Shown here in pieces: positions 4,641 to 24,631 of a stretch of DNA of 32,000 nucleotides. The notes under the pieces were generated by a model that saw nothing but the letters and a program-made list of their open reading frames with translations, searched no databases and was not told the DNA's origin. The stretch's first letter is position 1; every line of letters begins with the position of its first letter. Source of the stretch: Kiritimatiella glycovorans (GTDB lineage: Bacteria > Verrucomicrobiota > Kiritimatiellia > Kiritimatiellales > Kiritimatiellaceae); NCBI RefSeq assembly GCF_001017655.1, contig NZ_CP010904.1:1110001-1142000 (forward strand). The letters are read 5' to 3'. The position numbers and the translations under genes are program-made.

Positions 4641-5357
4641 GTAGGGACGGCTTCCACGCCGTCCGTTGTGAGCGATCCCCTGGAGGGACGGCTTCCACGC
4701 CGTCCACAAAAGCGGCGCGCTCGGAGATCGCGCCTTACCCGAAAACGCGGGCCGACCCTTGCGAGGGAACAGGTCGGGGTGGAACCCGACCCTCCACGCC
4801 GTCCGTTGTGAGCGATCCCCTGGAGGGACGGCTTCCACGCCGTCCGCAAAAGCGGCGCGCTCGGAGATCGCGCCCTACCTGAAAACGCGGGCCGACCCTT
4901 GCGAGGGAACAGGTCGGGGTGGAACCCGACCCTCCACGCCGTCCGTTGTGAGCGATCCCCTGGAGGGACGGCTTCCACGCCGTCCACAAAAGCGGCGCGC
5001 TCGGAGATCGCGCCCTGTCTGAAAACGCGGGCCGACCCTTGCGAGGGAATCGGTCGGGGTGGAACCCGACCCTCCACGCCGTCCGTTGTGAGCGATCCCC
5101 TGGAGGGACGGCTTCCACGCCGTCCGCAAAAGCGGCGCGCTCGGAGATCGCGCCCTACCAGAAAAACGCGGGCCGACCCTTGCGAGGGAACAGGTCGGGG
5201 TGGAACCCGACCCTCCACGCCGTCCGTTGTGAGCGATCCCCTGGAGGGACGGCTTCCACGCCGTCCGCAAAAGCGGCGCGCTCGGAGATCGCGCCTTACC
5301 CGAAAACGCGGGCCGACCCTTGCGAGGGAACAGGTCGGGGTGGAACCCGACCCTCCA
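4641..5357. repeat. Tandem array B of the same 140-bp unit (about 5.1 copies), same orientation as array A
   Basis: The marker ttgcgagggaa recurs at 4759, 4899, 5039, 5180 and 5320, a period of 140 with one 141 caused by an extra A. The unit is nearly identical to array A apart from tgcgaGggaaCAggtcgggg versus tgcgaTggaaTCggtcgggg. An extra hairpin GCTGCTG..CAGCAGC (4604-4619) sits between the stop codon and the array. Confidence 0.97.
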
Positions 5358-11155: not shown

Positions 11156-11222
11156 GGCAGGGACGGCTCTCCGAGCCGTCCGAAAATGTGAGAGGGCAGG
11201 GACGGATCTCCGAGCCGTCCGC
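11154..11222. repeat. Two direct copies of a long-stem hairpin of the same family
   Basis: gggcagGGACGGCTC-TCC-GAGCCGTCCg (11161-11181, perfect 9-bp stem) is followed 39 nt downstream by gggcagGGACGGATC-TCC-GAGCCGTCCg (one mismatch). The pair fills the gap between the transporter gene and the next gene. Confidence 0.85.
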
Positions 11223-11235
11223 GGGAGGACGAAGA

Positions 11236-12432
11236 ATGAAGAGAAACGAAATAAGAAGACTTCCATACATCGCCGCGGCGGTCCTGTTGGCCGCCACGCT
11301 TCCGGCGTGGGCGATGAAGGATGTGAACGTGGCCCAGTACGGGGCGCGCGGAAACGAACACCGCGACGATACGGCCGCCATTCAGAAGGCGCTCGACGAG
11401 GTGATGGCCGCCGGCGGCGGGCGCGTATTCTTCCCGCAGGGCGATTACATCATCACCGCTCCGCTGAAGGTCAAGGCGCCGAACTCCGTGACGAAATCGA
11501 CCGAGATTCGCCTGGCGCTGGAGGGGCACGGCGCGGGCCTGTCCCGGTTGATGTTGAAAGACGGCGATGGTCTGATCCACATCCAGACGCCGCGCAACGG
11601 GATGAACGTGACGGTTCGCGATCTCAGTCTCATGGCCGGAAACCCCGATGCAGGGACGGCGCTGAGCATCGTCAATCCCGCGCTCGGCGTGCGCGTCGAG
11701 CGCAGCGCGCTGATTGAGCGGGTGACGATCGAGGGCATCTACCGCGATAGCTATTTCACGAAGGGGATTGTGCTCGACGGGCAGTGGCGTGCGCTCGTGC
11801 GCAATGTGACGGTCAAGGGGGCTCAGACGGAGTCCATGGACGATGAGTCGGCGATGTTCGCGATGAAGACCGGGATCGAGCAGAACGGGTTTTACGGCGG
11901 GCGCTACGTCGACTGTTTCGTCAGCCATGCCGACACAGCCTACAGCTGGGTGGCCGAACAGAACGGAGAGGGGTTCGTCATCATCGGGTCCGTCGCCGAC
12001 TGCTGCCGTGTGGGGGCCATTATTTCCACCCCGGAACAGGAGCCCGGCGGCGCGCTGTACAATTCGCGTATACGGGCCCGTGACAGCGGACTGATCATCG
12101 ATCACAAGCGGCTGCTGGCCGTTGTCGGCAACACCTTCGAGCCGTTGAGCGAGCACGGCGGCTATCCGTACGCGGATGTGCGGATGTCCAATTGCTGGGC
12201 GATCCAGATCAACGGCAACCGGTTTATCGGTCCGGCGAAAAACCGGGCCCATGTCGTGGTAGAGGGCCGGGGCGAATCGAAGCGGTACGTGATCATGCCG
12301 TTCAGCCGGTATATTCAAATCAATGACAACGAGTTCGTGCTGCCGCCTGAGAAGGCCGTGGCGTACGAAGGCGAAGAGATCTTTGCCGTCTACACCGACA
12401 ACAACCGCGTACAGGGTGGAGGGAAGAAATGA
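11236..12432 (+). CDS. Secreted right-handed beta-helix protein (pectate-lyase superfamily / GH28-related)
   Basis: ATG 11236 is preceded by GGGAGGA, and the signal peptide is MKRNEIRRLPYIAAAVLLAATLPAWA. It carries the motif VAQYGARGNEHRDDTAAIQKALDEVMAAGGGRVFFPQGDYII. The track start at 10798 lies inside the transporter gene and is rejected. Confidence 0.78.
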   Translation: MKRNEIRRLPYIAAAVLLAATLPAWAMKDVNVAQYGARGNEHRDDTAAIQKALDEVMAAGGGRVFFPQGDYIITAPLKVKAPNSVTKSTEIRLALEGHGAGLSRLMLKDGDGLIHIQTPRNGMNVTVRDLSLMAGNPDAGTALSIVNPALGVRVERSALIERVTIEGIYRDSYFTKGIVLDGQWRALVRNVTVKGAQTESMDDESAMFAMKTGIEQNGFYGGRYVDCFVSHADTAYSWVAEQNGEGFVIIGSVADCCRVGAIISTPEQEPGGALYNSRIRARDSGLIIDHKRLLAVVGNTFEPLSEHGGYPYADVRMSNCWAIQINGNRFIGPAKNRAHVVVEGRGESKRYVIMPFSRYIQINDNEFVLPPEKAVAYEGEEIFAVYTDNNRVQGGGKK

Positions 12433-14174
12433 AGCATGGCATGATCATTCTTATGCTGTCGGGCCTGGCGGTCTGGAGCCCGGCGATCCGCGCGTCGGCC
12501 GCGACTACGGTGTCTCTCACGGACGCCCCGTTTTCCGCGGTGGCGGACGACGGGAAGGACGATGCGCCGGCGCTGCAGAAGGCGCTCGAACGCCTGATCG
12601 CGGAGGGCGGGGGCGTCCTGCACATCCCCTCCGGGCAGTACGACTTTGATTCGCGGGTGAGCGTGCACGGTTCCTTCTCCCGCTTGACGATCCGGGGCAT
12701 GGGCGCGAGCATCACGCGGCTCCACAGCCGTAACGGCGAAGGCGTGTTGAAGATCGAGGCCGGGAACGGCGATGCCGAGATCGGCATCATGGATCTCGAC
12801 ATCGTCCCGACGCGAGCGGACGCGGGTACGGCTCTGGAGCTGACCAAGCCGTTTACCGAACCGGACGAGGTCCCGTATAACCTGCTGCTGACGAATATCG
12901 AGTTCCGGCCGAACAACAACGAGACGGATTACTTTACCCGCGTGATCGTGGCCGGCGGATGGAAGCCGCTGATCGACAATATCAATTCCTCGGGGCTTTA
13001 CGGGCCGAAGTTCAACACCTTCGAGGGGAAGCGTAAGAAGTATCGGGCGGAATCGATTCTGACGCTCAAGCCGTCCTACAAGCCGCGGGTGCGTTATTGC
13101 AATCTCTGGGCGGCGACGCACGGGATCGTGATCGAACTGACCGATGCGCACGAGGAGCCGACACTCGACGGCGCGGTTTCGGTCGAGAACGCGCACGGCA
13201 TCCGCATCACCAAGACCGGCGACCGGCCTCTTTCCAGCCCCGTGGTCATCGTCGGATGCCACTGGAACAACGCCTTCAGCGGACTCGTGATGGAACACGT
13301 CGATAGGTTTCGGCTCGTGCAGAACTGTCTCTACGGGGCGTGGGACGTCGAACCCGACTACCGGGATATCCGCCTGGTCGACTGCGCCGACGGGGAGCTT
13401 ATGGCCAATTCGTTCTGGTTCGGCGTACGCCAGCGTCCGCTGATCTACATCGAGGACGACTGCCGGGACATCCTCATCCGGGATTCCTATTTCGGTCGCG
13501 GTTGTTCACGGACGCCGGTCGTCATCGAGGAGGGGGCACAGAACATCGAGGTCACGCGCAGCGTCTATGGGACGGTCTATGCGATGGATGAAGATGACAC
13601 CTTCGGTTTGTGGGAGATGGAGGACGTGGAGAACGGACGCGCCCTTGACAAGGACCTGCTCCAGCCGGGCCGGGACAACGATCTGAACCTGGCCGGCGCG
13701 GTTCCCGCGCCCGGAAGCGAGAAGCTGAAACTGGGAGGGGCGCTGCATTTCCCCGACTCAACGAGCCGCGCGAAAAGCACGCTCGCCTGGGACGGCGCCA
13801 ACGGCGTGCGGATTCATGCCCATGTGCGGATCGACCGGAGGGCGGAGCGCCAGGCGCTGCTCACGGTGCCCGGCGTGTTCGCGCTCGAACTCCATTTCGA
13901 CCGGCTCTGCTTGATCTTTAAAGACGGCCGGGGGGACCGGCAGGTGCTCCAGGTCCGGGACGTGGCCCCGGGGAGGCGCTGGATACCCGTCTTTGCCGAA
14001 GTCGATCCGGAGACCGGGCGCGCCGTGCTCGAAGCGGGCGGACTCGGCGGCGACCGAAGGTTTGCCGATACGCTGCGCCTCTTGAGGCGGCAGGCGCCGC
14101 TCATTATGGGTGCCACAGAGGAGTGCGGCGGATTTTCAGGTGCGCTCGACCAGGTCTGGATCCAGAGGAGATAG
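12429..14174 (+). CDS. Secreted beta-helix protein with C-terminal LamG/concanavalin-like domain
   Basis: Its ATG overlaps the previous stop codon (ATGA at 12429-12432). The signal peptide is MKHGMIILMLSGLAVWSPAIRASA. It carries the motif PFSAVADDGKDDAPALQKALERLIAEGGGVLHIPSGQYDF. The C-terminal roughly 150 aa (LKLGGALHFPD...GFSGALDQVWI) look like a LamG-type lectin fold. Confidence 0.72.
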   Translation: MKHGMIILMLSGLAVWSPAIRASAATTVSLTDAPFSAVADDGKDDAPALQKALERLIAEGGGVLHIPSGQYDFDSRVSVHGSFSRLTIRGMGASITRLHSRNGEGVLKIEAGNGDAEIGIMDLDIVPTRADAGTALELTKPFTEPDEVPYNLLLTNIEFRPNNNETDYFTRVIVAGGWKPLIDNINSSGLYGPKFNTFEGKRKKYRAESILTLKPSYKPRVRYCNLWAATHGIVIELTDAHEEPTLDGAVSVENAHGIRITKTGDRPLSSPVVIVGCHWNNAFSGLVMEHVDRFRLVQNCLYGAWDVEPDYRDIRLVDCADGELMANSFWFGVRQRPLIYIEDDCRDILIRDSYFGRGCSRTPVVIEEGAQNIEVTRSVYGTVYAMDEDDTFGLWEMEDVENGRALDKDLLQPGRDNDLNLAGAVPAPGSEKLKLGGALHFPDSTSRAKSTLAWDGANGVRIHAHVRIDRRAERQALLTVPGVFALELHFDRLCLIFKDGRGDRQVLQVRDVAPGRRWIPVFAEVDPETGRAVLEAGGLGGDRRFADTLRLLRRQAPLIMGATEECGGFSGALDQVWIQRR

Positions 14175-14204
14175 GCCGCAATGCATACACGGATACGAAT
14201 CACA

Positions 14205-14472
14205 GGGCCGGCTTCCACGCCGACCGCAAAAGGGACGGGGTGAAACCCGTCCCTCCAGGGAAAATGCGGATGGCGATATGGAGGGTCGGCTTCCACGCCG
14301 ACCGCAAAAGGGACGGGGTGGAACCCGTCCCTCCAGGGAAAATGCGGATGGCGATATGGAGGGCCGGCTTCCACGCCGACCGCAAAAGGGACGGGGTGAA
14401 ACCTGTCTCTCCAGGGAAAATGCGGATGGCGATATGGAGGGTCGGCTTCCACGCCGACCGCAAAAGAGGACG
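14205..14472. repeat. Tandem array C: 78-bp unit (about 3.4 copies) related to the 140-bp family
   Basis: ggcttccacgccgacc recurs at 14210, 14288, 14366 and 14444, a period of 78. The unit contains GGTCGGC-TTCCAC-GCCGACC, a 7-nt spacer, then GGGACGGG-GTG(G/A)AA-CCCGTCCC. The last copy is degenerate. Confidence 0.95.
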
Positions 14473-14485
14473 GAGAGAACGGTAA

Positions 14486-16540
14486 ATGAACGTACGAGGG
14501 ATTATAGGGTGGGTCGCGGGGGCGCTGGCGCTTCCGGCGATGGTGTCCTGTGTTCATCAGGAGACTATGGATTTGCCAATGTATACTTTACTCAAGACAG
14601 GCGAGGTCAGGCCTGCGGGATGGATCGCCGAACAGATGCGCATGGATCTCCACGAGGGCATGGTCGGCGACTACAGCAACATATCCGAGAACGTAACTCA
14701 GAACTTGTTTGCGAAGCAGGACCGGAAACCGGGCGTGCGGGTCAAGGGAAACCGCGGCCACATGGAGAAGGCATGGTGGGCCGGCGAGCATGAGGGCTAC
14801 TGGATGGACGCGATGACGCGCATGTCGATCCTCACACAGGACGAGACCTTCCTGCCCCGCGTCGAAGCATGGGTCGAGCGAATTATCGACCGCGCGGAAC
14901 AGACCGGCTATATCGGTGTGTATTCACCGGAAGCGCGGTTTCCGGACCGGGGTTATGACGGCGAGCTGTGGACACAGAGCCGCGTTTTTCAGGCCCTGCT
15001 GGCCTGGTACGAGTACACGGGGGATAAACGGGTGCTTGAGGCGGTCGAGTCGACGGTACGCAAGACGGTCGATCACTACCGCGAATACGGGACGTACTTC
15101 GGACGGCCCGACCCCGATGGCGGCGTCACACATGCGGTCGGCTACATGGACACGCTCGAGTGGCTCTACCGCCTGACCGGCGAGAGCTGGTATGCCGAAG
15201 CGGCGGCCTGGCTTTACGCCGATTACGCCCAGTCCGACGTGTTTTCGGACCTCAACCCGGAGGCGCTGCTCGATGTGGACCGGCCATGGGAATATCACGC
15301 CCCCCATGTGGCGGAGGGCCTGCACATGCCCGCTGTGGTTCATTGCTTTACGGGAAACCCCCATCTCGATCGGGCCGCCGCGAACGTGCTCGCGAAGCTG
15401 GATACCCATACGAATCCCGGCGGCAGCCTTGTGGCGGGTAAGCTGGAGAATATTGCAGCGACGCCGGGAGGAGGCGGGGAGGCCGGTGAGTATTGCGCCA
15501 TGACTGAATCCGTCCAGACCCTGAATCGTTACCTCATGTACGAAGGAGATCTGCACTGCGGGGACTGGAGTGAGAAATGCACGCTCAATGCGGCGCAGGG
15601 TGCACGCTTTCATCCCGCGAACCGCGCCGTCATCTATCTCGCCCGCGACAACCGGCTGAGGGCGGATGACCCCGAAAAACACGGCGGGCGAGAACTCTTT
15701 TCCGGAAGTCACAGCGCGGCGGCATGCTGCACGCTGAACGCCATGCGTATTCTGCCCTATTACGTTGAGGGCATGTGGCTGCGTTCAACAAAACGCCCGG
15801 AATTGATCGCGAACCTCTACGGACCCTGCACGGTGGATACGGAGGTCGACGGCGTTGCGGTCAGGATCGAGGAGCGCACCGGCTATCCGTTCAGCGACCG
15901 CATTACGTTTGTGTTGAAGCCGGAACGCGAGGTCGAGTTCTCCCTCGTGCTGCGCCGCCCCCCGAACTGCGGTGAAATCCGTATCGAGGCCGGAGAAGAC
16001 GCGCGCGTCGTGCGCAGCAGTCAGGATGTCTACGTCAGGAAACGCTGGAGCGCGGGCGACACGGTTGAGGTCGACTGGGATTTCCGGGTCGCCGGACGCC
16101 TGCAGCACGACGAAACCCAGGCGTACTATGAGTGGGGCCCGCTGGTTTTCGCGCTCCCGATCCCGGAGCGGCGGGAGGTGCTCGAGGAGATTACGACGAA
16201 CAGCGGCGATCCGTCCGGCTATTTCGAATATGCGATCCGTCCCGAATCGGACGAGGGCTGGCGCTACCGGATCGATAAGGAAGCCGAGTTCAAACGGGTT
16301 GAGCTTCCGGACGGCGACGCCGAGCGGCCCTGGGCGCATCCCCCGATCGGCCTGAAGGGAACCTTGCTCGACGCCGAGGGCGTACGGCGGGAGGTGACGC
16401 TCAAGCCGCTCGGAAGCACCATCCTCCGCCGCACGACCTTTCCGATCAGCGCTGAACTGGCGGATGCCGAGGCGCGGGACGAGGACGAAGATACGTACCA
16501 GGGCACCGGCGGCGAAGGGGATCCGATGCGCGATTTCTGA
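14486..16540 (+). CDS. GH127-like glycoside hydrolase (beta-L-arabinofuranosidase / DUF1680 family), lipoprotein
   Basis: Lipoprotein-like signal MNVRGIIGWVAGALALPAMVSC. An E-x-C motif (GEYCAM, about residues 335-337) and a Cys-Cys pair (AAACCTLN, about 414-415) are spaced as I recall for the Glu338/Cys340/Cys417/Cys418 zinc and nucleophile site of HypBA1. This is recalled from memory, not searched. Confidence 0.72.
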   Translation: MNVRGIIGWVAGALALPAMVSCVHQETMDLPMYTLLKTGEVRPAGWIAEQMRMDLHEGMVGDYSNISENVTQNLFAKQDRKPGVRVKGNRGHMEKAWWAGEHEGYWMDAMTRMSILTQDETFLPRVEAWVERIIDRAEQTGYIGVYSPEARFPDRGYDGELWTQSRVFQALLAWYEYTGDKRVLEAVESTVRKTVDHYREYGTYFGRPDPDGGVTHAVGYMDTLEWLYRLTGESWYAEAAAWLYADYAQSDVFSDLNPEALLDVDRPWEYHAPHVAEGLHMPAVVHCFTGNPHLDRAAANVLAKLDTHTNPGGSLVAGKLENIAATPGGGGEAGEYCAMTESVQTLNRYLMYEGDLHCGDWSEKCTLNAAQGARFHPANRAVIYLARDNRLRADDPEKHGGRELFSGSHSAAACCTLNAMRILPYYVEGMWLRSTKRPELIANLYGPCTVDTEVDGVAVRIEERTGYPFSDRITFVLKPEREVEFSLVLRRPPNCGEIRIEAGEDARVVRSSQDVYVRKRWSAGDTVEVDWDFRVAGRLQHDETQAYYEWGPLVFALPIPERREVLEEITTNSGDPSGYFEYAIRPESDEGWRYRIDKEAEFKRVELPDGDAERPWAHPPIGLKGTLLDAEGVRREVTLKPLGSTILRRTTFPISAELADAEARDEDEDTYQGTGGEGDPMRDF

Positions 16541-17324: not shown

Positions 17325-17410
17325 TGGTGGTGGGGGAAGGATTCGAACCTTCGAAGGCATGAGCCAACAGATTTACAGTCTGCCCCGTTTGACCGCTTCG
17401 GTACCCCACC
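17325..17410 (-). tRNA. tRNA-Tyr(GTA): tRNA-Tyr (anticodon GTA), CCA encoded
   Basis: Minus-strand sequence GGTGGGGTACCGAAGCGGTCAAACGGGGCAGACTGTAAATCTGTTGGCTCATGCCTTCGAAGGTTCGAATCCTTCCCCCACCACCA. It has a 7-bp acceptor stem GGTGGGG/CCCCACC, an anticodon loop CTGTAAA, a long variable arm and a T-loop GGTTCGAATCC. Confidence 0.95.
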
Positions 17411-17468: not shown

Positions 17469-17534
17469 GGATCAGAATCAGAATCAGAATCAGAGTCAGA
17501 GTGAGAATCAGAGTCAGAGGGAGAGGGAGTGAGA
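17469..17534. repeat. Hexanucleotide microsatellite (GANTCA-type), 11 units
   Basis: ggatca gaatca gaatca gaatca gagtca gagtga gaatca gagtca gaggga gaggga gtgaga. The plus strand is purine-rich and six of the units contain GANTC. Confidence 0.9.
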
Positions 17535-17770
17535 AACCGTGAGACCTGAAACCTGAAGGATGAGTACGGCTTTTTCCGCTGCGCGGACCTGCGGGCCTGC
17601 TACGAGCGTAAGAGAGAACGCACCATTTTTTTGCCTGTGCTCTTCTCATCCATCTTTGCGCTTCCAGTAGTTCCACAAAAATCTACGAAGAGCCCGGAAT
17701 TGCGAGTTTGCTGGCGTCGACCCCCGATATCTTTGCCTCTTACTCAAGTCTCAGGTTTCAGGTTTCTCAC
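17529..17770. mobile_element. MITE-like 242-bp segment bounded by 20-nt inverted repeats (speculative)
   Basis: The left end is gtgagaaacc[gtgagacc]tgaaacctga (17529-17556). The right end is tcaggtttcaggtttctcac (17751-17770), which is the exact reverse complement of the left end once the 8-nt internal duplication is removed. The interior has no ORF and carries the 36-nt motif also found at 24496. Confidence 0.35.
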
Positions 17771-22988: not shown

Positions 22989-23068
22989 GGACGGCGTGGC
23001 AGCCGTCCCTCCCGAGTCGATATCCGACGCATTTTCGGGCACTGGGAGGGTCGGGTGCCACCCCGACC
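22989..23068. repeat. Solo inverted hairpin pair (REPIN-like) of the same family
   Basis: GGACGGC-GTGGCA-GCCGTCC (22989-23008) and GGTCGGG-TGCCAC-CCCGACC (23049-23068). The loops are reverse complements. The 40-nt spacer is itself bounded by CTCCCGAG / CTGGGAG. Confidence 0.85.
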
Positions 23069-24276: not shown

Positions 24277-24421
24277 CTCACGCCTCCTCGACGTTTAATT
24301 ATGCGTTCTCTGGTCACCTTTATAGTCGAAATCCGGATCGAAATCGAAAGGGAAATCGTTACCCGCCATGAAGGACATGAAGAGCATGAAGGTTGGTTCG
24401 GGGGGGGAGAAGGACGACAAA

Positions 24422-24631
24422 CGTTCGTAGTAGCGCCGCAAGCGCCCGAAGGGCCAAGGCGCGTGAAGATAACGGCCCTGGCCCTGCTTCGCAGGCCTGC
24501 GGGCCTACTACGAGCGTAAGAGAGAACGCACGATCTCTTCTCATTCCTCTTTGCGATCCCGGCGCCTTTGCGAGAGTCATGTCGATCGTTCGTAGTAGCG
24601 CCGCGAGCGCCCGAAGGGCCAAGGCGCGTGA
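24422..24631. repeat. 45-nt direct repeats flanking a conserved intergenic motif
   Basis: cgttcgtagtagcgccgc(a/g)agcgcccgaagggccaaggcgcgtga occurs at 24422-24466 and 24587-24631 (44/45 identical). Between them lies the 36-nt motif at 24496-24531, whose ctactacg core is complementary to the cgtagtag of the repeats. Confidence 0.9.

Follow-up and report, generated by a model that had tools for sequence, protein, structure and literature searches.

The window analyzed here is a 32,000-nucleotide stretch of the Kiritimatiella glycovorans genome (contig NZ_CP010904.1, positions 1,110,001 to 1,142,000, numbered below from its first letter), in which a short gap between two + strand genes is occupied by a tandem repeat at 14204-14473 (period 78, 3.4 copies, 95% matches, score 496 in Tandem Repeats Finder). 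Each 78-bp unit carries two GC-rich hairpins, GG(T/C)CGGC-TTCCAC-GCCGACC and, seven bases further on, GGACGGG-GTG(G/A)AA-CCCGTCC, with stems of 7-8 bp and loops TTCCAC and GTGGAA or GTGAAA. We consider it highly probable that this array is a cluster of repetitive extragenic palindromic (REP) sequences of the bacterial interspersed mosaic element (BIME) type, made up of tandem hetero-dimers of a REP module that is linked to genes for REP-associated tyrosine transposases (RAYTs). The array and its flanking genes comprise the following features.

12429 to 14174, + strand: upstream gene, 581 amino acids, weak pectate-lyase-like match; stop codon 30 nt 5' of the array
14202 to 14225, + strand: REP copy 1a, degenerate tag ACAG, hairpin 14206-14225, stem GGCCGGC/GCCGACC with one C.A mismatch at stem position 3, loop TTCCAC
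14233 to 14256, - strand: REP copy 1b, + strand GGACGGG-GTGAAA-CCCGTCC-CTCC, hairpin 14233-14252, loop one transition away from GTGGAA
14280 to 14303, + strand: REP copy 2a, GGAG tag, hairpin 14284-14303, perfect stem GGTCGGC/GCCGACC, loop TTCCAC
14311 to 14334, - strand: REP copy 2b, + strand GGACGGG-GTGGAA-CCCGTCC-CTCC, hairpin 14311-14330, perfect, with an eighth pair G14310-C14331 possible
14358 to 14381, + strand: REP copy 3a, GGAG tag, hairpin 14362-14381, stem GGCCGGC/GCCGACC with the mismatch, loop TTCCAC
14389 to 14412, - strand: REP copy 3b, + strand GGACGGG-GTGAAA-CCTGTCT-CTCC, hairpin 14389-14408
14436 to 14459, + strand: REP copy 4a, GGAG tag, hairpin 14440-14459, perfect stem GGTCGGC/GCCGACC, loop TTCCAC
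14460 to 14485, + strand: decayed end of the array, GCAAAAGAGGACGGAGAGAACGGTAA, with a Shine-Dalgarno-like stretch GGAGAG, a candidate ribosome-binding site, just 5' of the ATG at 14486
14486 to 16540, + strand: downstream gene, similar to beta-L-arabinofuranosidases of glycoside hydrolase family 127 (GH127), starting 13 nt after the array

The 78-bp array and its oriented module

The two hairpins of a unit are one element in two orientations. Their loops, TTCCAC and GTGGAA, are reverse complements, as are the TGGAG ahead of the first hairpin and the CTCCA behind the second, so that a single oriented module, TGGAG-GGWCGGS-T(T/G)CCAC-SCCGWCC (W, A or T; S, C or G), is found on either strand in all arrays of the window and in one isolated pair. 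Counted with a 4-nt tag, a 7-bp stem and a 6-nt loop, the module is 24 nt long, and the 78-bp unit is made up of a REP hetero-dimer in head-out arrangement, its tags facing outward, and about 23 nt of spacer. The window contains all four W/S combinations, and the 3' arm of each is perfectly complementary; GGGWCGGS-N6-SCCGWCC with at most one mismatch has 63 matches there vs 0.33 expected from shuffles.

An earlier note on this DNA had reported that copies 1 and 3 carry GGCCGGC with one mismatch, that copies 2 and 4 are perfect, and that the loop alternates between GTGAAA and GTGGAA; the sequence confirms all of this (the loop in copies 1b, 2b, and 3b). It had overlooked two C>T changes in the 3' arm of copy 3b (CCTGTCT), which give G.T pairs on the + strand. 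The variants alternate as blocks, GGCCGGC with GTGAAA and then GGTCGGC with GTGGAA, repeated, and the array therefore grew by duplication of a 156-bp double unit. Its copies, being recent block duplicates, are not independent witnesses and provide no evidence of covariation. In the spacer at 14257-14279, the segment GCGGATGGCG agrees at 8/10 positions with the reverse complement of the 3' arm of the next REP plus GC (GCGGTCGGCG), and from this likeness it looks like a decayed REP arm.

The same REP family recurs elsewhere in the window, together with a second REP type, in which a GGACGGC stem follows a G(T/C)AG tag and encloses the 7-nt loop T(C/G)TCC(G/C)A.

1143 to 2060: first 140-bp array, 6.6 copies, same REP family
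4641 to 5357: second 140-bp array, 5 copies, the repeat itself at 4653-5357 and preceded by a GTAG-tagged copy at 4641-4664
22989 to 23068: isolated dimer with tags inward, GGACGGC-GTGGCA-GCCGTCC-CTCC, 31 nt, then GGAG-GGTCGGG-TGCCAC-CCCGACC, showing the loop variant TGCCAC
11157-11181, 11196-11220, 2094-2117, and each 140-bp unit (e.g., 1195-1219): second-type REPs, on the - strand in the 140-bp units, where they read GTAG-GGCGCG-ATCTCCGAG-CGCGCC

Each 140-bp unit contains a REP on the + strand (GGACGGC-TTCCAC), a second-type REP on the - strand, a REP on the - strand (GGTCGGG-GTGGAA), and part of a further REP; it amounts to a head-out dimer whose 66-nt spacer is structured. Copies within these arrays, which lie in other gaps between + strand genes, are 96-97% identical, and the three arrays together amount to about 1.9 kb of REP cluster DNA in the 32 kb. 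Two second-type REPs also take up the 80 nt from the stop codon of a major facilitator superfamily (MFS) transporter gene (11155) to the next start codon (11236).

The earlier note had set the stems of the 78-bp array against GGACGGC/GCCGTCC and GGTCGGG/CCCGACC and described them as changed on both arms around conserved loops and flanks. Reading both array types bears this out: the 140-bp stems are GGACGGC-TTCCAC-GCCGTCC and GGTCGGG-GTGGAA-CCCGACC, and the flanks GCAAAAG and CTCCA are common to both. Its further claim of two independent compensatory double substitutions in this array is not supported, as all four stem types are old and widespread; GGACGGC, GGTCGGG, GGTCGGC, and GGACGGG, with at least ten more stems, occur as perfect hairpins in many distant genomes. 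The two array types merely draw on different pre-existing REP variants. Even the position that is swapped depends on the alignment, because the modules can be aligned directly or inverted. Over 28 nt that include the CCCTGGAG flank, the array's GTGGAA hairpin is 93% complementary to the TTCCAC hairpin in the 140-bp arrays, and an inverted reading is equally good; in it, the only change is at the pair that closes the loop (C-G to G-C), and not at position 3. Both readings call for a single compensated pair in each hairpin. The common 3' flank GCAAAAG speaks slightly for direct alignment, and the common CCCTGGAG for inverted alignment. The matched stem changes are real, but they are a well-known property of REPs and not a new kind of evidence.

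Stem covariation across genomes

To follow the module beyond the window, we scanned one genome per species with the pattern AGGGWCGGSTKCCACSCCGWCC, in which W and S were left free on both arms. The module was present in at least 120 stretches from at least 51 assemblies and at least eight labelled phyla, the labels among the matches listed being Verrucomicrobiota, Kiritimatiellia, Lentisphaerota/Victivallales, Sumerlaeia, Anaerolineae, Deltaproteobacteria/Thermodesulfobacteriota, Eisenbacteria, and Phycisphaerales. Among these matches, window copies included, 189/192 modules are complementary at both variable positions. Large contigs carry the module too (467 kb in an Anaerolineaceae, 396 kb in an Opitutaceae, and 357 kb in a Limisphaerales genome), and mis-binning of metagenome-assembled genomes (MAGs) alone is therefore an unlikely explanation for the spread of a 22-nt module. 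Copies lie on many contigs of other genomes, for example at about 25 loci of Sumerlaeia SKW40, and by a crude measure 44% of modules fall inside stop-to-stop open reading frames (ORFs) of at least 200 amino acids vs 85% of all bases.

For a sample free of circularity, copies were chosen by GGAG and TKCCAC alone, with no pairing condition, in 847 kb of fetched DNA. All seven Watson-Crick pairs are present in 200/231 of these copies and six of seven in 18/231. Anchoring on the loop alone gives a bimodal distribution, with 226 copies at 7/7 vs a background mode of 1-2 of 7. Across 54 distinct sequences, 89.4% of cells are paired (64.7% in shuffles), changes on both sides occur in 85 cells (28 in shuffles), and the covariation score of 0.591 (0.162 in shuffles) was reached by 0/500 shuffles; with the partner column slid by 1-3 columns as a control, the score falls to 0.05-0.10. 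Stem positions 1-2 are fixed as G-C, and positions 3-7 vary with compensation, the pairs at successive positions being AT/TA/CG, CG/GC/TA, GC/CG, GC/CG/AT, and GC/CG. The tag is TGGAG or GGGAG before 216/252 modules and before 49/65 of the copies that the scan pattern did not constrain. Collectively, the stems covary across genomes while loop and flank stay fixed, as the earlier note had proposed for a hairpin with a fixed loop, and the stem variants fall into sub-families, a point it had suggested testing, that differ from one genome to another.

Where two modules stand tail to tail, the partners have different stems in 24/24 doublets from about 20 genomes. Those of the array differ from each other at 4/24 positions (stem positions 3 and 7, both arms), which favors two separate small hairpins over one long palindrome as the likely form. 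A doublet in a Lentisphaerae MAG (L105) has the spacer GCAAA(A/T)G, as in the 78-bp array. Three viral contigs from IMG/VR (L203, L204, L205) hold one module copy each, and the 78-bp unit has no match in PLSDB plasmids. Carriage between phyla by phages or plasmids was considered and is unsupported, given three single viral copies and zero plasmids.

RAYT genes and loop classes

When all ORFs of the fetched loci were searched by phmmer with E. coli RayT as query, five matched (L036, L042, L048, L064, and L084). All five match the NCBIfam model NF047646 (REP-associated tyrosine transposase) with 72-86 bits (E 1e-20 to 2e-24; cutoff 80), two of them, at 85.9 and 80.1 bits, at or above the cutoff. 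In an alignment with E. coli RayT, PDHIHLF (HUH), WQRDFWDTQ (WQ), and YVxxNPVRAGL (catalytic Tyr) are invariant. The linked RAYTs are only 24% identical to E. coli RayT. Identity among these five ranges over 46-60% and among the linked RAYTs at large over 46-70%, and the latter figure argues against a very recent transfer. Each of the five ORFs has a TTCCAC module within about 100 bp or inside it, and with L170, a metagenome contig, there are six loci in other genomes that combine a RAYT gene with a TTCCAC module.

In-frame REP modules were also observed inside the RAYT ORFs at L036 (1484-2209, - strand), L042 (3666-4598), L048 (3395-4159), L064 (3290-4048), and L170 (2272-2859). Their positions are N-terminal or between the HuH and Tyr motifs, and they are translated as GGTGSTPS, AGGTAPS, or DGVEPVPPGG peptides; the L084 ORF is without an insert. 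We set these insertions aside as a novelty, since they have already been published for TnpAREP subclass 2.4 (PMC6006769).

The reciprocal test started from the RAYT protein and covered 80 metagenomic relatives. TTCCAC modules accompany only 1/80 of them, and a GGAG tag with a perfect 7-bp stem and a 6-nt loop lies beside 47/80. These 47 relatives are accompanied by 179 such hairpins vs 0-2 in shuffles, with 36 different stems, all but one of which begin with GG. The loops differ by lineage (CTCCGT 64, CGCCGT 21, CGCTGT 14, and others), and the nearest RAYT has the same loop class in 34/60 cases vs 13 (maximum 25) in permutations. Similarly, the five TTCCAC-linked RAYTs are each other's nearest neighbors, though their MAGs are labelled as different phyla. 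It follows that the RAYT clade shares tag and overall shape, that the loop changes together with the enzyme, and that any stem interior will do provided it pairs. The earlier note had named a RAYT as one protein that might recognize the hairpins; through linkage and loop-class co-variation in other genomes, it is now the best candidate.

A separate arrangement was observed in a Kiritimatiellaeota MAG (L013, 2684-5596), where an ORF for the PriA helicase (971 amino acids) contains a Y1_Tnp-like insert (26.9 bits) that follows its 3'-DNA-binding domain; about 500 bp downstream of this ORF is a doublet of TTCCAC REPs.

Interpretation, rival explanations and significance

The module consists of an unpaired 5' TGGAG tag, a 7-bp stem starting with GG, the loop TTCCAC, and the complementary arm, and, as the stems of the partners differ, each would fold its own small hairpin rather than a joint long palindrome. 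By homology with the TnpAREP systems of E. coli and Stenotrophomonas maltophilia, the modules would fold in single-stranded DNA, where a cognate RAYT of the HUH/Y1 family may read tag and loop as sequence and the stem as shape. Putative cleavage and rejoining beside the hairpin, suggested by this homology and by the co-variation of loop class and RAYT, would spread doublets through intergenic DNA, and tolerance of any pairing stem would leave tag and loop fixed and the stems free to covary. The array itself may have grown by tandem duplication of doublet and spacer through slippage or unequal exchange, with the 156-bp double unit as the latest step. A cognate enzyme is presumably encoded in the K. 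glycovorans genome and may act on these sites.

Several results weigh against a RAYT-linked REP cluster. A phmmer search with E. coli RayT found no RAYT gene within the 32-kb window. Three of the five linked ORFs score 72-75 bits against NF047646, just under the 80-bit cutoff, and matches of the RAYT candidates to Pfam Y1_Tnp are weak or absent. The dominant tag is GGAG and not that of the GTAG super-family, with GTAG in a few copies only (e.g., window position 4641, L024, L032, L038, and L040). The scan pattern fixed five of the seven stem positions, so that the dominant stem types are biased by ascertainment and secondary copies alone inform those positions, and copies within one genome are related by descent, so that the counts are not numbers of independent events.

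The strongest rival, which has some merit yet is improbable as the main explanation, holds that the hairpins are selected mainly as RNA in a polycistronic transcript, as 3'-exonuclease barriers, processing sites, or translation modulators. All window REP copies are intergenic, and the three arrays sit in short gaps between same-strand genes (at the 78-bp array, 30 nt after a stop and 13 nt before a start) among genes for glycoside hydrolases, a sulfatase, and an MFS transporter, with which they are almost certainly co-transcribed. The changes in copy 3b give G.U pairs on the + strand, and REPs have been reported to stabilize mRNA and to have G.T pairs commonly in their stems, as described in PMC3733652. 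The RNA fold of the region stands at a z-score of -7.9. Whole-array minimum-free-energy folds are strongly stable (z about -7.7); they lose the TTCCAC hairpin, the decayed REP arm in the spacer pairing with the 3' arm instead, and we judged them uninformative next to the covariation. Against selection as RNA, each doublet has one module per strand and so prefers neither orientation with respect to transcription; the + strand of copies 1a and 3a has a C.A mismatch; and among copies with six of seven pairs, G.T/T.G mismatches number 10 vs 6 for A.C/C.A, which is not a clear strand signal. Intrinsic terminators (a GC hairpin with a T tract) have 0 sites in 13900-14700 on both strands, and a promoter scan at the array found no consensus. 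At the gathering threshold, Rfam reports two tRNAs in the window and no family on the array, where a permissive search gave best sub-threshold matches of at most 22.6 bits vs thresholds of at least 35. The same tag and loop are also found in unrelated contexts in different phyla and follow RAYT lineage, a pattern for which an RNA role specific to one operon does not account. An RNA-level function is plausible as a secondary, co-opted role, through which the transcribed hairpins may affect the flanking glycoside-hydrolase genes.

Two unrelated pairs of direct repeats of 54-60 nt, 87% identical, were also observed in the window (17578-17631 with 24486-24539, and 24407-24466 with 24572-24631). 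One copy lies about 170 nt from a tRNA gene (17328-17410), beside an (ATCAGA)x8 microsatellite (17471-17518).

Template switching within palindromes is an established one-event route to paired changes. It, or gene conversion within the hairpin, could have produced the matched arms during neutral duplication of a palindromic sequence under no structural selection, an account that fits the recent, 95% identical, block-duplicated copies of the array and that we nevertheless regard as quite unlikely. Neutral duplication explains the growth of the array but not the covariation across genomes, where the same tag and loop are combined with at least 14 different perfect stems in at least 51 assemblies, and where pairing is bimodal with mismatched copies a small minority. 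Template switching would itself imply that the hairpin forms in DNA, which is the core of the REP explanation.

A protein-coding array, with an in-frame repeat of 26 codons, is very unlikely. The 78-bp period is divisible by three, an open frame of 120 amino acids on the + strand (14123-14485) runs across the array and stops exactly at the following start codon, and REPs of the TTCCAC family are translated in-frame inside RAYT genes elsewhere (compare PMC6006769). This frame begins inside the upstream gene in another frame, array-spanning ORFs have no significant Pfam match (best 17.7 bits, below cutoff), the 140-bp period of the sister arrays is not divisible by three, and GC-rich repeats lack stop codons by composition. 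The regularly spaced palindromic repeats recall a spacer-acquiring array of the CRISPR kind, an idea with hardly any standing given that the 'spacers' are identical between units with nothing acquired, the repeats alternate in orientation, and no cas-like genes lie nearby in the window.

The REP explanation also agrees with what is described for known systems. REP sub-families with alternative complementary stem residues, dimers of two different stems, head-head and tail-tail dimers with hetero-dimers preferred (possibly to escape SbcCD), and clusters of dimers reiterated in tandem with flanking DNA are all described in PMC3733652. Like E. coli BIME-2, with its alternating Y and Z2 REPs and TnpAREP/RayT, the present family has short GC-rich hairpins, each with a tetranucleotide left unpaired on its 5' side, an orientation that alternates, two stem/loop sub-types combined as hetero-dimers in tandem in gaps between co-directional genes, and a linked single-domain HUH/Tyr enzyme of the IS200/IS605 lineage. 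The E. coli REPs are longer and imperfect, with a bulge and a GTAG tag, whereas here a perfect 7-8-bp stem and a 6-nt loop follow a (T)GGAG tag. The perfect-palindrome REPs of S. maltophilia (SMAG; GTAG-6 to -9) with their TnpAREP share short perfect stems and a small loop, and differ in an 8-bp stem, a 3-nt loop, a GTAG tag, and a gammaproteobacterial group 3 RAYT. Experiments with a perfect-palindrome REP found loop and tag critical, complementary stem swaps tolerated, and mismatches harmful (PMC8266576), and this experimental pattern in S. maltophilia equals the comparative pattern here.

The closest enzymes appear to be those of RAYT group 4/TnpAREP subclass 2.4 (Bertels 2017, PMC5581495; Quentin 2018, PMC6006769), an assignment made by features only and not by placement in the tree of Quentin 2018. 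In-frame REPs between HuH and Tyr are the hallmark of that group (PMC6006769), which is scattered over many phyla (PMC6006769; PMC5581495). The proteins linked here likewise have WQ and Y(I/V)xNNP-like motifs, a variable HuH-Tyr insert of in-frame REPs, no C-terminal extension, a patchy distribution over many phyla, and REP stems beginning with G-C pairs; unlike subclass 2.4, they have DHIH instead of NH[IFV]H, and their tag is GGAG instead of GT[AG]G. REPINs of Pseudomonas fluorescens (Bertels and Rainey 2011), whose RAYT is single-copy, are likewise two inverted REPs with a short spacer and likely a mobile unit; their partners are near-identical, making one long hairpin possible, whereas every doublet here combines two different stems. 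Among Verrucomicrobia, the GTAG-17 to -20 repeats of the REP-rich Opitutus terrae (Di Nocera 2013) are similar in their dimers with 1-2-nt spacers, degenerate tag, and frequent in-frame intragenic copies, a likeness of described features and not of consensus sequences.

The tag variants listed for the GTAG super-family by Di Nocera (2013) are GYAG, GYRG, GTRG, GTMG, and GTGG, and GGAG is not among them. Going by the features of its sequence, we file the TTCCAC family as a REP, though not as a canonical GTAG-family member. A sequence-text search of the literature gave no description of it (one match, an unrelated enzymology paper), nor did Rfam, and a REP family with this loop has probably not been catalogued before. 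Current understanding is not overturned by this array, since its features have all been published for REPs; the differences are a GGAG and not a GT[AG]G tag, a HuH motif of the DHIH form, and the TTCCAC family in particular.

The near-invariant 17-nt frame TGGAG-GG...TTCCAC...CC occurs in bacteria of the Planctomycetes-Verrucomicrobia-Chlamydiae (PVC) group, Chloroflexota, Desulfobacterota, Sumerlaeota, Eisenbacteria, and Phycisphaerae. REP-RAYT systems have, to our knowledge, been studied almost only in Proteobacteria, and the prevailing picture is that REPIN-RAYT systems are lineage-specific and vertically inherited. We raise tentatively, as a possibility that is doubtful at present, that the REP-RAYT pair either repeatedly passed from one phylum to another or has retained its recognition code over a very long period, and that the pairing of different stems is a selected design and not an accident. 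If so, either route would contradict the prevailing picture, and doublets of different stems may serve to avoid long palindromes or to mark distinguishable left and right ends for the enzyme.

For annotation, the arrays amount to a REP cluster within strings of polysaccharide-utilization genes, to be masked as repeats rather than recorded as novel RNAs, CRISPR-like arrays, or small ORFs. Taken together, they provide a well-defined REP family of PVC and other little-studied phyla, with a recognition code that is simple and testable (a fixed TGGAG tag, a GG/CC stem base, a free paired interior, and a loop that changes with RAYT lineage), and thereby a convenient natural data set on how HUH enzymes may read hairpin DNA and on the co-evolution of repeat and enzyme.

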